Positions 30,001 through 33,000 of a stretch of 64,000 nt of DNA are shown here, one piece after another (the stretch's first letter is position 1; each line of letters begins with the position of its first letter). The stretch lies in assembly GCA_034667685.1 (NCBI GenBank), contig JAXDQU010000021.1:32001-96000 (forward strand), given 5' to 3'. Made by a program: the position numbers. The stretch is from Thermoplasmata archaeon (lineage in GTDB: Archaea > Thermoplasmatota > SW-10-69-26 > JACQPN01 > JAJPHT01).

Positions 30001-33000
30001 TTCTCGGCCTGCGCGGGGTCGCGCTCGGTGAACCAGATGGACGCGAAGGGCGCGGCCTGCTGGAAGGGGTTCGCGACGGGCGGGCGCTCGGCGAGCGTCT
30101 CGATCCAGAAGCCGTAGTCCCACCATGATAGCACGCCGTAGGCGTTGGGTGGATAGTCGGGCAGCGCGCCCAGGGGCGGCGTCGGGTAGACCTTGCCCAG
30201 GTCGACGCCAGCATCGGGCGTGTTGTCGCGCATCCATTCGAGCGCGGGCTGCCACTTCCACAGGTCGCCCGGGCTCGCGGCGGCCGCCGCCACCTGCCAG
30301 CCGGGCACCGCGCCGTTGGAGGCGAACACGTTGCCCGGAAGCACGAGAAGGAGCACCGCGGCGACGCAGAGGGCGCGCAGGGGCGTCACGCCGGTGCTGC
30401 GCGCGCTGGCCGCCTTGGCCTTGCGTCCGCGCGCGGGCTTGCCGGCCGCCTTCGTGGCCGCCTCGTCCTCGGACGGCGTCAGGCCCACGGCCTCGCCGAT
30501 GCGCGCGGCGAGCCAGCCGGTGAGCAGCGCGAGGCTGATGGCGAGGTAGTGCGCGAAGTGCGCCTGCGTCGCGGTGGCCTGGAAGATGAGCGCGCTCCAG
30601 ACGAGGAGCAGCACGTCGGCCGGCCGCCGCTTCCAGAGGGTCCAGAGCAGGAGCAGCGCGAGGATGACCACGCCCAGGTACGTGAGCGGGCCGTAGTTCG
30701 CCGCGAGGCAGCTCTGGGTCCGCGTCGGGTCGCAGAAGAACTCCGCGCTGCGCGCCTCGCTGATGGTGAGCGTCGTGCGCGTCACGCCGATGCCGGAGAC
30801 CCAGCTCAAGCCCCAGCGGATGCTGCCCAGGAAGTTCGAGGGGATCGTGAAGATCGCGACGACGGCCGCCACGAAGATGCCGGCGAATCCGGCGGGGACG
30901 GCCCAGCGCGGCCAGCCCGCGTCGCGCGCGCGCCGCGAGGCGACGTAGATCACCAGGACGCCGATCGCGCTCGCGAAGCACGCCAGCGGGTGGAGGATGC
31001 CGTACGTCGTGAACTCGCCCAGGTACGTCGACTCGATGACGGGGACCATCAGCGCGCCGGTGATCGCGAGCACGAGCGCGCCGCCCGCGGCGTAGCCCAG
31101 CGCGTCCTGCCCCTGCGCCTCCTTGAGCAGCACGACGACGCCCAGCCAGACCGCGGCGATGGCGACGAAGAGGATGCCCGGGGGCCACACGTAGAGGTTC
31201 GCCGCGAACGCGACGCCGCCCACGAGCGTCCAGAGCAGCGGCAGGCGCAGCGCGCGCCAGTCGCGGGCCCGCAGCGCGTCGCGCGCGGCGTGCATGCGCT
31301 CGACGGCGATGAGGAGGCCGAGCATGGCGAGGATCGCGGCGAGGTCCTGCGGGCCGTCGTGGTCGGTCGAGCCGATGATGCTGCGGTAGAGGAAGTCGCC
31401 CGGCAGGACCGCGAGCGTCAGCGTGGCGACGATGGCGCCGGGCCGTCCCATCAGGCGGCGCGCCAGGTAGTAGAACGGGATGATGAGCAGCGAGCCGATG
31501 ATCGGCGGCGCCCACGCCAGGTCGCGCGCGATGATCAAGTCGGGCGCGCCCTTCCCGCCGTCGAAGAGCACGACGAACGCCGCCACGAGCCAGTCGTAGA
31601 GCGTGCCGAACTGCCCGGTGGTCGTGCCGTGCGGGTAGAACGTCCACGGGTCGAAGCGCGGGATCGCGGGGAACGCGCGCACGGCGCCCACCGTCTCGCG
31701 GAAGTGGTAGATGTCGTCCGGGTCCTGGCCCAGCGGGATGCCCCCGCCGCTGAACAGGATGTCATGGCCCAGCGTGCGGATCCAGAGCATGAAGAGCGCC
31801 AGGACGACCAGCAGCGGGATCTCCCAGACGATCGGTCGGCGCAGCCACGCGGGGGCCTCGGCCATCGCGCGGCGACCCGCCCCGGGCCGTTTCAGGGTTT
31901 CCGTTGAGATTCCCGAGCCCTCTTCGAGCCCAAGCCTCAGCCTCAGCCTCAGCCTCAGCCTCAGCCTCAGCCTCAGCCTCCATCCTTTCAGCCACAGAGG
32001 ACACAGAGGTCACGGAGGAACGAGAAAAAAAAATCGCCTCTGTGACCTCTGTGTCCTCTGTGGCTGGAGGAGTCAGGGCAACAGGCTAGGGCTGAGGCTG
32101 AGGCTGAGGCTGAAGGCTCGGGCTAAGGCTAAGGCGGAGGCTGGGGCTCGGGTGCGCATGGACGAGGGCCTGCTCGCCTTCCTGCTGCGCGCCGAGGGGA
32201 TCAAGGACCGGCCGCGCCGCGGTTGGCTGCGGGCCGGCGTCGCGCGCCCCGAGAGCGTGGCGGACCATGCGTGGGGCGTCGCGATGCTGGCGCTCCTGGC
32301 GCCCGCGCCGGGCGTCGACCGCGCGCGGGCCGTGGAGCTGGCGCTGCTGCACGACGTCTGCGAGGCGGCGGTGGGCGACCTGGTGCCGGGCGAGTACGCG
32401 AGCCGCGAGGCGAAGCTGGCGGTGGAGCGCGCTGGTCTGGAGGAGATGCTGCGCGGAGCGCCTTCGGCCCTCCGTGCGCGGGTCCTCGATGCGTTCGATG
32501 AGCTGGCGCGCGACGCGACGCCCGAGGCGCGCTTCGTCCACGCGATGGACAAGGTGGAGATGGCGCTCCAGGCGCGGCGCTACGAGGATCGCGGCGTCGC
32601 GTCCGACGCGCTCGCATCCTTCCGGGCGAGCGCCCGCGCCAGCGCGCCCGGGCACGCCGAGGCGCTCGACGCGCTCGTCCGAGGATCCGGCCAGAAGGCC
32701 GACCTACCATGAGCGGCCCCCGGGGGCGCATGACCGAGCGCGAGAGCAAGAGCGGCTACGGCGAGAAGGGGCGCGACTTCCTGGAGAAGGAGATCAAGCA
32801 CCACGTCGAGGACAAGGGCATGCCCCAGGACCAGGCCGTCGCTGCGGCGATGAGCGAGGCCCGCAAGAAGGGGTACAAGGTCCCGGACGAGAAGTAGACC
32901 GCTTTCGGTGGGCCCGAAGGGTCCTGCTGCCGCCGCCTGGAGCGTGAGGCGCTGAAGCTCACGCCCGAGGGCGGCCACGTCACGCTCCGCGCGCCAGGAC

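Follow-up and report, generated by a model that had tools for sequence, protein, structure and literature searches.

A palindrome of about 200 bp near the centre of a 64,000-nucleotide stretch of DNA (the window), carried on contig C21 of the genome of a Thermoplasmata archaeon (GCA_034667685.1, hereafter G000), is on balance best read as one copy of a dispersed non-coding repeat that resembles REP and MITE elements and belongs to a superfamily of octamer-array hairpins present in two domains of life. The spread of transposase-free palindromic repeats is a long-standing question and small palindromic repeats affect mRNA stability, genome rearrangement and assembly quality. Genomes from many bacterial phyla and from a single archaeal lineage contain hundreds of hairpins built from one 8-base block; a second block, GCGCAAAG, behaves in the same way between Acidobacteriota and Myxococcota. 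Descent would imply a mobile element that crosses domains and for which no enzyme is known, convergence a universal constraint that picks the sequence, and either explanation of this sharing would be new.

Architecture of the element and of its family in G000

The hairpin core occupies window positions 31993-32062 and the full palindrome approximately 31934-32135, and direct reading of the sequence in window coordinates verified the location given in the preliminary description. The left outer stem (31934..31981) is a hexamer array of seven GCCTCA units and one GCCTCC which pairs with the right array in the predicted fold, and it is followed by the linker and clamp ATCCTTTCAGC (31982..31992; CTCCAGC in the consensus of 42 oriented copies). 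The 5' arm (31993..32018) reads CACAGAGG-A-CACAGAGG-T-CACGGAGG, that is three 8-nt units with 1-nt spacers, and contains a plus-strand match at 31993 to the 17-mer of the preliminary description. An A-rich loop of 18 nt (AACGAGAAAAAAAAATCG, 32019..32036), which the list of loops shows to be the family loop ACGAGAAAAGTCG extended in its A run, leads into the 3' arm CCTCTGTG-A-CCTCTGTG-T-CCTCTGTG (32037..32062), recognised by minus-strand 17-mer matches at 32037 and 32046 and by the fold. The right clamp GCTGGAGG and the linker AGTCAGGGCAACA (32063..32083), the latter recurring in other array-flanked copies, are followed by the right outer stem (32084..32135), in which GGCTAG and four GGCTGA units reach to 32113 and degenerate units (GGCTCG, GGCTAA and others) run on to about 32135-32150. 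A search for hexamer arrays returned C21 63928-64135 as an L-R-R group. The element folds at -182.1 kcal/mol against -94.7 +/- 4.8 for shuffled sequences (z = -18.2), with none of 200 shuffles equalling it.

The element sits in the spacer of a divergent gene pair, both members of which are read away from it. To the left is an archaeal oligosaccharyltransferase gene of the AglB/STT3 type (29184..31865, minus strand; Pfam AglB_core-like 2.5e-19, STT3 1.2e-16, AglB_L1 2.2e-10) and to the right an ORF (32159..32712, plus strand) that is conserved in the congeners G003 and G004 and matches no Pfam family at E <= 0.001. The 17-mer has 5 matches in the window where 0.00 are expected. The family census places further B copies in the window at 2733..2791 (C21 34733-34791), 13827..13874 (C21 45827-45874, with degenerate hexamer units alongside), 18288..18344 (C21 50288-50344), 24173..24239 (C21 56173-56239, with a degenerate 3' arm) and 43111..43176 (C21 75111-75176).

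When an element is defined by at least three CAC[AG]GAGG/CCTC[CT]GTG units within 60 nt, or by a plus-minus pair, G000 holds 59 B elements. The multi-copy family of about 50 (52) hairpins proposed earlier is thus real, and the 85 matches reported for the 17-mer were obtained again in the same number with none for the reversed control. All but one of the 59 copies have two arms, and in these 58 the CACAGAGG units invariably come first (5'), followed by the loop and then by the CCTCTGTG units; spacers of 0-2 nt separate the 8-nt units, and CACGGAGG is the G variant of the unit. The 42 copies that could be oriented by their loop give the consensus CTCCAGC, three units, aACGAGAAAAgtCG, three units, GCTGGAG; their mean pairwise core identity is 81%, which indicates that the family is not a very recent burst. 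As a dispersed repeat the element is about 85 bp long, and at this locus the hexamer arrays extend it to about 200 bp. Such arrays flank 10 copies on both sides, the number given previously, and 3 more on one side; nesting between (GCCTCA)n and (TGAGGC)n arrays is seen for 10 B copies and 2 cores of family C, and at least five hairpins in the genome consist of hexamer arrays alone. The copies lie 5-11 kb apart among housekeeping genes, and with gene calls from a crude GC3 method all but 2 fall outside called genes, those 2 being in over-extended 5' ends.

The shared octamer and a possible origin in soil bacteria

The multi-copy occurrence in bacteria that had been noted before is real and lies far above both reversed and polarity-swapped controls. 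Of the 301 Acidobacteriota genomes sampled, 55 contain tandem CACAGAGG, many of them at 10-100 matches (the tally includes one match in G078), and it reaches 63-196 matches in genomes of five bacterial phyla against 0-2 for controls, the 8-mer being sharply conserved across more than 10 phyla. Exact CACAGAGG arrays occur in 10 of the 400 other genomes of the archaeal phylum with at most 6 matches each, and among the 401 genomes of the phylum sampled B is greatly expanded in G000 alone. This lopsided prevalence is one argument for the reading that soil bacteria were the source from which family B reached the archaeon, or its near ancestors, before multiplying there, the arms being identical by descent. 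We consider this a possible origin, though one that we would put clearly below even chances.

Several other observations bear in the same direction. G000 originates in soil (runs X1-X3) and shares this habitat with the B-rich phyla. Megaplasmids of Gemmatirosa, which carry copies at 7 and 5 places, and viral-labelled contigs, with 6 loci in B polarity and 0 in swapped polarity, would be possible vehicles; the viral loci appear to lie in ordinary host-type contexts, one of them beside the end of a tRNA gene, and identified no vehicle. The element is AT-richer than the host genome (71% GC), and among its substitutions those toward GC (62 A>G, 51 T>C) outnumber those away from it (39 G>A, 14 C>T), which fits a foreign origin. 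G000 contains 378 merged long hairpins, a density of 109 per Mb where shuffled sequence gives 9.5, and 202 of these hairpins have periodic arms built from several different units, and this density of periodic-arm hairpins (202 in 3.48 Mb) is closer to that of the acidobacterium G023 (53 in 0.4 Mb) than to that of the congener G003 (5 in 0.4 Mb); some soil bacteria exceed G000 in such hairpins. The first 30-31 bases of the G000 element are also exact in four single bacterial or metagenomic copies (L114, L235, L249 and L251). Transfer from bacteria to the archaeon is a live possibility, and if it took place its direction would follow from the prevalence of 55/301 versus 10/400.

Against this stands the small amount that is shared. 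The arms had been described as identical over 26 consensus bases, which was not upheld: of 145 outer arms from 120 bacterial loci, 15 have the AGC lead and 5 a third unit preceded by a T spacer, and the first spacer varies between A (53 arms), G (38), T (26) and none at all (20), so that the arrangement in G000 (AGC + A + T) is a rare combination. The features common to archaeal and bacterial hairpins are limited to the 8-mer, the way in which it is repeated in tandem and inverted, and its polarity, whereas loops, clamps, outer stems and spacers are lineage-specific, and because the unit is repeated the shared information amounts to about one 8-mer plus a few bases. The G000 family profile matches bacterial loci over the arms plus AGC/GCT alone, the G000-type clamp with loop has 0 matches in metagenome contigs, and of the 71 loci with the CCAGC clamp in common none has the G000 loop. 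Another unit, GCGCAAAG, recurs in more than one bacterial phylum: it gave 466 matches in an acidobacterium, 144 in a Sorangium genome and 8 in one planctomycete, where controls gave at most 1.

The B unit also has relatives nearer to hand. Units of the same architecture that differ from B by transitions alone occur in G000 and its relatives (CACGAAGG, CACGGAGG, CGCAGAGG and CGCAAAGG), which makes the exact B unit one of 8 variants of CRCRRAGG, and, given this frame, only about 3 bits are contributed by the exact unit. Tandem CRCRRAGG exceeds its reversed control in G015 (52 vs 1), G008 (49 vs 3) and G005 (17 vs 1), among others; G008, from the same family as G000, has two-armed hairpins with arms CACAGAGG-TT-CGCAGAGG, and a relaxed search that admits A/G variants of B gave 15 matches in G015 (control 1), 6 in G005, 5 in G006 and 4 in G001. 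The near absence from the rest of the phylum that had been claimed therefore holds for exact arrays but not for the A/G variants which G000 itself uses, and the existence of such sister units and of B-like hairpins in archaea belonging to G000's own family and class argues against an import from soil bacteria. So does the behaviour of families A and C, which were not found in five B-rich bacteria and have bloomed in G000 as well: family A has 70 matches there against at most 11 in congeners, family C 148 against at most 9 in four congeners and relaxed B 187 against at most 4 in four congeners. The joint expansion of A, B and C in G000 alone points to a peculiarity of its lineage rather than to the import of one family. 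As to the overall interpretation in the preliminary description, it stands that the family is real and multi-copy and that its unit and polarity recur in bacterial high-copy hairpins, but the statement that it "has therefore crossed the archaea-bacteria boundary" draws on the identity of a repeated 8-mer only and is not supported in that form.

Site occupancy, function and mode of spread

G003 and G004 lack the whole element between the same two genes, where their spacer is about 100 bp in length as opposed to 293 bp in G000. As these congeners are 70-78% identical, the exact insertion ends, any target duplication and the pre-insertion site are unreadable in them. No constant direct repeat lies beside the conserved ends in the listed copies, the empty sites of the congeners being heavily diverged, and Sorangium strains, with flanks that are diverged or repeat-rich, yielded no readable insertion ends. 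In soil-run contigs compared with window positions 1-20000 there was no empty-site allele and no joint skipped a hairpin, many of the joints in this comparison having sides of 20-23 letters and coming from other organisms. It is from its distribution that the family would be called mobile.

With regard to an enzyme, Y1/RAYT (PF01797) and reverse transcriptase (PF00078) were found in 0 of 21 genomes including G000, and TnpB (PF07282) in 0 of 20 genomes apart from G019 and not in G000, in agreement with the earlier statement that no mobilising enzyme was found. Y1 genes are present in 4 of 5 B-rich bacterial genomes, and 0 of the 12 Y1 loci in these bacteria have a B array within about 1.5 kb. 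The multi-copy genes of G000 are a secreted-protein family only and none are transposase-like, in a MAG from which IS copies may be missing. The idea of a gene carried between paired hairpins was rejected: what lies inside the two pairs with a separation of 1.1 kb are unrelated housekeeping genes, identified from their sequence as malate dehydrogenase and a winged-helix regulator. A recurrent neighbour gene in bacteria was likewise rejected, as the 10 locus pairs with flanking similarity among 120 bacterial loci are mostly paralogues of acyl-CoA metabolism and were not taken as linkage.

The hairpins could instead be selected functional elements, built independently in many lineages with a universal partner constraining the unit, whether as hairpins for operon RNA stability or processing, as mimics of the Shine-Dalgarno or anti-Shine-Dalgarno sequence or as a DNA site for a conserved protein; we regard this as improbable. 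The strict polarity, seen in the 58 two-armed copies of G000 and on the viral contigs, speaks for it, and so does the fact that unit families vary from one another by purine-purine exchanges only, at three positions. In bacteria a number of copies separate genes of the same pathway, for example thiolase and hydroxyacyl-CoA dehydrogenase, and a Bacteroides copy between the co-directional genes gmd and fcl has been kept in both B. finegoldii and B. ovatus. Compared between the two species as it stands, this last hairpin agrees at 59 of 75 positions; after reverse complementation it agrees at 70 of 76 (92%). The flanking sequences agree at 57 of 60 positions and at 85 of 90, and the hairpin has thus been inverted in place between the two sister species. 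Selection for a function would likewise be compatible with the very sharp conservation of the 8-mer, its strict polarity and the retention of the hairpin at this one operon junction. GGAGGT occurs within the G variant of the 5' arm, and ACCTCC in the 3' arm is the 6-mer found at the 3' end of the 16S rRNA of this genome (...GGATCACCTCCT). As a general cause Shine-Dalgarno mimicry was rejected because other families of the same build in G000 (CACGCCAA, ACCCGA and TTCCGA) are without such content.

The distribution of the copies in G000 speaks against selected function. Of 34 copies with classifiable gene context 20 are tandem, 8 divergent and 6 convergent against a background of 993/311/247, and B copies show no preference for any intergenic class. 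Mismatches relative to the strand of the upstream gene are G:T in 76 cases and A:C in 82, so that there is no wobble bias for a transcribed strand, and the loop is present in both orientations. The orthologous spacers of G003 and G004 show no sign of a replacement for the missing copy. Intrinsic terminators were rejected as an explanation given the absence of a T run after the stem (a U-tract in RNA), the lack of any preference for 3' ends and the position of 8 of the 34 copies, this one included, between divergent starts. Pieces of RNA-run contigs differ from the window by 17-75 letters each and so have no bearing on transcripts of this organism.

An artefact, through bacterial contigs mis-binned into an archaeal MAG or palindromes made by the assembly, may be dismissed, for although the MAG comprises 124 contigs, has 71% GC like Sorangium and includes several contigs that start or end in a hairpin, the copies are spread over more than 40 contigs, among them C89 with the archaeal 16S rRNA gene, and adjoin archaeal genes such as AglB; the archaeal host named at the outset is confirmed by its SSU rRNA (archaeal, 1498 bits), completeness of 99% and contamination of 1.29%, and the window's hairpins recur without a single differing letter in contigs from two other soil runs (two studies). 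The copy at 13827..13874 was found in contigs of two soil runs that end at 13878. Further archaeal genes adjoining copies are, as we take it from their translations, those for a DRG GTPase and an eIF-2B-like protein.

Our preferred reading remains that of a dispersed palindromic repeat within an octamer-array superfamily, a DNA element that would have entered intergenic sites about 60 times by copying in the lineage of this archaeon. Copies would arise by copy-and-insert at the DNA level or by template switching that recognises the hairpin structure and not its sequence, and a process of this kind would explain the joint bloom of several unrelated unit families in G000. Slippage would alter the number of units, and recombination between the arms (flip-flop) may maintain their symmetry and the two orientations of the loop. 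Membership of a superfamily with units CRCRRAGG would then underlie the identity with bacterial hairpins, and the archaeal members of this superfamily may derive from an old or repeated transfer from soil bacteria or have a parallel origin. More speculatively, and with rather less assurance than we attach even to an origin in soil bacteria, CRCRRAGG octamer-array hairpins, including CACAGAGG and CGCAAAGG, could all form a single, very widespread mobile superfamily free of any transposase, propagated as hairpins through host replication or repair together with in-place flipping. Its members would move from one phylum of soil bacteria to another, distant one, and would have entered one archaeal family or more. 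Were this so they would be among the smallest and most promiscuous mobile elements known. Testable handles are offered by the in-place flip in two cultivable Bacteroides species and by the joint expansion of families A, B and C in G000, which its congeners do not share.

Comparison with known repeat classes

No Rfam family covers the element, as had been reported: the best score is 67.6 bits against a threshold of 197, and generic microRNA-precursor models alone were hit, all far below their gathering thresholds. Literature searches likewise returned no paper with these unit strings in this sense, in line with the earlier claim, while the supplementary tables of PMC4692102 and PMC3733652 may list related repeats. 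Triplex motifs, as treated in the available part of PMC4666352, were set aside.

REP and REPIN sequences are described in the available parts of PMC3116915 and PMC3733652 as high-copy intergenic hairpin palindromes, species-specific in detail and thought to be non-autonomous mobile DNA, often located downstream of genes or within operons. The B hairpins resemble them in being short intergenic palindromes in tens to hundreds (59 copies). They differ in the lack of the conserved unpaired GTAG or CGTC tag that REP sequences carry at one end (PMC3733652, available part), since the B consensus starts CTCCAGCC and ends GGCTGGAG and is fully paired, and in arms that are a tandem array of a non-palindromic 8-nt unit. 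A further difference is that no Y1/RAYT gene, flanked or otherwise, is present in G000 and none adjoins the bacterial copies, although REPs of the CGTC type are likewise without a dedicated transposase according to the portion of PMC3733652 consulted. Unlike REP sequences the B unit is also common to phyla and domains.

As in MITEs there are terminal inverted repeats, the whole element being an inverted repeat, but no arm pair encloses a candidate for a full-length transposase-encoding parent with matching ends. PATEs derived from IS200/IS605 presuppose TnpA (Y1) or TnpB in the genome, and neither is found in G000. Integron attC sites have an inverse core RYYYAAC, a core GTTRRRY and arrays of gene cassettes, whereas the G000 elements end in CTCCAGC/GCTGGAG and show neither core-site ends nor cassette arrays. 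Some bacterial clamps read TTAAC...GTTAA, inconsistently.

Foldback transposons of eukaryotes have long inverted arms of short tandem subrepeats around a small middle and most of their copies are non-coding, but they are much longer and for some a transposase-bearing master is known; their likeness to the B hairpins implies no link by descent. The SDR repeats of the Nostocaceae, reportedly described by Elhai et al. in Genome Research in 2008, are said to be tiny hairpin-like repeats without a transposase that are often nested in heptamer arrays or in each other, much as the B and C cores of G000 nest in hexamer arrays. SDRs reportedly measure 21-27 nt, occur only in a single group of cyanobacteria and do not consist of tandem units, and in this last respect the G000 hairpins would be unlike them.

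The B hairpins have the features of the class of inverted intergenic short-unit arrays treated by Rehm et al. 2015, which in the available part of that paper comprises tandem units of 6-9 nt confined to intergenic DNA in hundreds per genome, exemplified by heptamers in Xanthomonas (GGGAATC) and Nostoc (GGGGAYT) that were studied as formers of G-quadruplexes (PMC4692102). Xanthomonas contains 70-75 pairs of arrays facing each other on opposite strands which could form stem-loops (PMC4692102, same part). The unit GGAATC of family F in G000 resembles these heptamers as they are given there. For the arrays of Rehm et al. the accessible text describes no conserved loop, clamp or dispersed-family structure and no sharing of units across phyla or with archaea (PMC4692102), and it is in these features that the B hairpins stand apart from them.

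The hairpin in its spacer and its genome

Read directly from the sequence, the hairpin comprises a left array of seven GCCTCA units and one GCCTCC (window positions 31934-31981), an 11-nt linker, a 5' arm CACAGAGG-A-CACAGAGG-T-CACGGAGG (31993-32018), the loop AACGAGAAAAAAAAATCG and the complementary 3' arm CCTCTGTG-A-CCTCTGTG-T-CCTCTGTG (32037-32062). This arm is directly followed by GCTGGAGG, and a right array of GGCTAG and four GGCTGA units runs up to 32113, with degenerate units from there to about 32135-32150. The predicted fold of the 231-nt stretch is a single long hairpin of -182.1 kcal/mol (shuffles -94.7 +/- 4.8; z = -18.2). 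It is housed in a 293-bp spacer whose flanking genes both point away from it, on the left (minus strand) an AglB/STT3 oligosaccharyltransferase (AglB_core-like, Pfam, 2.5e-19) and on the right an ORF starting at 32159 without a Pfam match. Two congeners, G003 and G004, have both genes side by side (70-78% DNA identity) without the hairpin; their spacer of about 100 bp holds neither hairpin nor arrays and is too diverged for exact ends or a target duplication to be read.

The window spans C21:32001-96000 of its assembly. This assembly (G000; 3.48 Mb, 124 contigs, 71% GC) carries an archaeal SSU rRNA gene (1498 bits) and has a completeness of 99% and a contamination of 1.29%. Mis-binning or an assembly artefact is excluded by the spread of copies of this repeat, family B, over more than 40 contigs, that of the 16S gene among them, and by identical contigs from other soil runs, since contigs of two further runs from two studies cover the window hairpins with no differing letter. 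Contigs of these soil runs often stop where a B hairpin lies (window positions 2731 and 13878 are examples), and contigs of G000 itself end at hairpins (C76:3, C87:8, C53:82, C93:1, C12:1). Both kinds of assembly thus tend to break at hairpins, and copy numbers in metagenome-assembled genomes (MAGs) are probably too low.

Family B among the hairpins of the genome

The preliminary description had counted 85 occurrences of a 17-mer in this genome, a figure we reproduced with a reversed control of 0. Once the A/G variant of the unit is admitted there are 59 elements, of which 58 have both arms, and in these polarity is fixed: CACAGAGG-type units always precede the loop and CCTCTGTG-type units always follow it. 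The 42 loop-orientable copies give the consensus CTCCAGC-CACAGAGG-A-CACAGAGG-T-CACAGAGG-aACGAGAAAAgtCG-(mirror)-GCTGGAG, around which GC-rich outer stems are conserved more weakly. Both loop orientations occur about equally often, and the number of units is often unequal between the arms of one copy (e.g. 3 vs 1), which fits slippage or deletion between direct units. In pairwise comparison the copies are on average 81% identical over the core, and the family is therefore not young. Most departures from the consensus are A>G (62) or T>C (51), with G>A (39) and C>T (14) less frequent.

The genes beside B copies are ordinary archaeal housekeeping genes. Using a crude GC3-based gene caller we could classify the spacers of 34 of the 59 copies as tandem (20), divergent (8) or convergent (6), which matches the genome background of 993, 311 and 247 by the same calls and therefore indicates no context preference. 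Upstream stop codons tend to lie 17-28 nt away and downstream start codons at more varied distances, a pattern we read as a sign of which insertions are tolerated. Arm mismatches would be G:U on the upstream gene's transcript in 76 cases and A:C in 82, so that selection on one RNA strand is not seen.

Family B is one of several hairpin families in this genome. An inverted-repeat scan (stem of at least 18, at most 3 mismatches, loop of at most 60) gave 378 merged hairpins, a density of 109 per Mb (shuffled sequence 9.5 per Mb), and in 202 of these the arms have a period of 5-12 nt, with just 27-43 belonging to B. Family A (...CACGCCAAGACGCCAACACGC) forms near-perfect palindromes with a 1-nt centre, family C is built from CACGAAG units, and further units are GGGAAG, ACCCGA, TTCCGA/GGAATC, GGRCTCW heptamers and GCCTCA hexamers. 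Within the window the scan found a CACGAAG-unit hairpin (5240-5325), CACGCC-unit palindromes at 12064-12142, 39361-39457 and, with a 1-nt centre, 49059-49121, a TTCCGA-unit hairpin (57121-57189) and a hexamer-type hairpin (17344-17435). Hexamer-array hairpins occur without a core (at least five cases), with a central B core (ten cases, plus three B copies flanked by an array on one side only) and with a C-family core (two cases), so either the cores are nested centrally in other hairpins or the arrays grow around the cores.

Four congeners have at most 11, 4 and 9 counts for families A, B and C, as against 70, 187 and 148 in G000. A 400-kb sample of G003 held 33 long hairpins, only 5 with periodic arms, its families being ordinary non-periodic palindromes. 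On its contigs C15 and C40 (loci L298-L317) G003 has its own dispersed palindromes without tandem units, such as GGGGGGCGCAGCCCCCTGACGT and CAAGGGTCCAAAGAACGCGACGAGCGC, the latter enclosing CGCAAAGG-A-CGCAAAGG. That three unrelated unit families have expanded together in G000 speaks for a condition, permissive or mobilising, that is specific to this lineage and not for a special property of B.

No mobiliser came to light. Among 21 genomes, G000 included, none has a Y1/RAYT domain (PF01797) or a reverse transcriptase (PF00078), and the TnpB zinc-ribbon domain (PF07282) was found in G019 only and not in G000. A MAG can be without its insertion sequences, and the missing genes are therefore no proof of absence. 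Y1 genes are present in four of five B-rich bacteria, with B arrays near none of 12 such loci. The only multi-copy genes of G000 are a secreted-protein family. It has at least seven paralogues of 81-87% DNA identity, including two tandem pairs, which encode Gly/Thr-rich proteins of about 310 aa with N-termini that look signal-peptide-like in an unscored reading of the translations (members at C9:28404-29357, C40:390-1349, C34:110935-112218, C25:13684-16013 and C84:10050-12030).

The B unit across domains

A two-armed pattern of two exact units, a gap and one inverted unit occurs at no fewer than 120 loci in genome_contigs, and the matches listed include Acidobacteriota, Gemmatimonadota, Sorangium, Planctomycetota, Chloroflexota, Proteobacteria, Firmicutes, Bacteroidota, Verrucomicrobia and others. 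Tandem-unit matches number 196, 63, 107, 88 and 176 in five genomes, each from a different phylum (reversed control 2, 0, 0, 0, 0). An even sample of Acidobacteriota has at least one match in 55 of 301 genomes, a tally that includes one match in a genome flagged unpublished (G078), and at least four in about 35. Viral contigs carry the pattern at 6 loci (polarity-swapped 0, reversed 0). At one labelled viral in IMG/VR (L131) the hairpin adjoins what appears to be a tRNA gene's 3' end, on the opposite strand, which points to the border of a prophage or to flanking host DNA. Several bacterial B hairpins (L028, L075, L080, L077, L029, L056, L117, L082, L115) lie between acyl-CoA metabolism genes, named from translated matches as thiolase, 3-hydroxyacyl-CoA dehydrogenase, enoyl-CoA hydratase, acyl-CoA dehydrogenase and methylmalonyl-CoA mutase; this neighbourhood may merely reflect large gene families.

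The copies of each bacterial genome have their own common loop, clamp (TTAAC, TTCAC, TGAAC, TTAGC, CTCT and others) and flanks. In Sorangium a dispersed repeat of about 165 bp, present dozens of times per strain, has the hairpin as its core. What all carriers share is limited to the unit, usually with a C before it, the tandem and inverted arrangement, the polarity and often an A-rich loop start (…CACAGAGAAAA…). The preliminary description had arms identical over 26 consensus bases between the domains. This is overstated, as among 145 bacterial outer arms in the matches listed the features of the archaeal arm are in the minority, with the AGC lead in 15, the A as first spacer in 53 and the T-spaced third unit in 5. 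A profile of the archaeal family matched bacterial loci only in the arms and AGC/GCT, its clamp plus loop had no match in metagenome contigs, and its loop was absent from all 71 metagenome matches to the clamp and two units.

Sharing of units across phyla is not peculiar to B, since GCGCAAAG arrays are common to several phyla (466 in the acidobacterium G023, 144 in Sorangium cellulosum So0157-2 and 8 in a planctomycete; control at most 1), with none in G000. Under a slightly looser rule than that of the G000 scan, a 400-kb sample of the acidobacterium held 98 hairpins with arms that include (GCGCAAAG)n, (GGTTCAA)n, (CAGTTTT)n, CGCAGAGA-type units and B. One uninterrupted GCGCAAAG run of about 32 units lies in Sorangium at C1:2670849-2671104, and at locus L004 a GCGCAAAG hairpin directly adjoins a B hairpin. 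Read in the frame CGCAAAGG, this unit is two transitions away from CACAGAGG, as is the G000 unit CACGAAGG, with CACGGAGG intermediate, and all four fit CRCRRAGG. Tandem CRCRRAGG exceeds its reversed control in G015 (52/1), of the same class, in G008 (49/3), of the same family, and in other archaeal relatives (G005 17/1, G006 21/3, G007 21/3, G016 42/16), the matches in G007 looking like coding sequence. G008 has true two-armed hairpins with arms CACAGAGG-TT-CGCAGAGG and G001 has one CACGGAGG hairpin. In G015 (L142-L153) CACAGAGG/CACGGAGG form one-armed direct arrays without spacer, with purine-rich sequence after them, and not hairpins. Of the 20 nearest relatives, 6 carry exact CACAGAGG arrays, against only 4 of 380 more distant genomes of the phylum.

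We lean slightly towards family B being a member of a shared superfamily, whose archaeal members may have come by transfer or arisen in parallel. Direct transfer from bacteria, one form of the domain crossing that the preliminary description concluded, we regard as possible though doubtful. The core of that observation was sound with two numbers overstated, and its reading is partly supported. Transfer is favoured by a prevalence lopsided between bacteria and the archaeal phylum, by soil as a habitat common to both and by B hairpins on megaplasmids. It also agrees with an element GC lower than that of the host, with decay running GC-ward, and with a periodic-hairpin load that resembles the acidobacterium and not the congener. 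However, the repeated unit is the sole thing in common, the archaeal family and class have endemic sister units and B-like hairpins, and the exact B unit is one of eight within CRCRRAGG. That the hairpin is a convergently selected functional element seems improbable to us.

Nature of the element and related systems

In Bacteroides records labelled as plasmids, gmd and the GDP-fucose synthase gene flank a copy of the bacterial B hairpin (B. finegoldii L163:2501-2572, B. ovatus L162:2501-2570), which is absent at this junction in Phocaeicola massiliensis. Between the two species the flanks match at 57/60 and 85/90 positions and the 75-nt hairpin at 59/75 as it stands and 70/76 when reverse-complemented, so the hairpin has inverted in place. 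Such inversion makes both loop orientations possible without re-insertion and shows that the arms recombine with each other, a process that would preserve their symmetry.

The site element is most likely a REP/MITE-like palindromic repeat of a new sub-kind, an octamer-array hairpin. Elements of this kind are shown to be dispersed, polymorphic between species at a site, nested and, in Bacteroides, flipped, and they lack a known transposase. Copying may proceed by a structure-directed DNA process, with host replication or repair switching templates at hairpins, or alternatively through an unseen enzyme acting in trans; unit number would shift through slippage and arm symmetry would be upheld by arm-to-arm exchange. 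The main interest lies in the same tiny building blocks reaching high copy from phylum to phylum and also in one lineage of archaea, with no known enzyme.

No Rfam family fits the element, and our literature search found no paper with the unit strings in the present sense. Among the closest known systems are small dispersed repeats nested in cyanobacterial heptamer arrays, while eukaryotic foldback elements are alike by analogy only. REPs and REPINs share the lifestyle of the octamer-array hairpin, but tests for a tag and for RAYT came out negative for the element of G000. Also among the closest are inverted arrays of the GGGAATC heptamer in Xanthomonas (PMC4692102).
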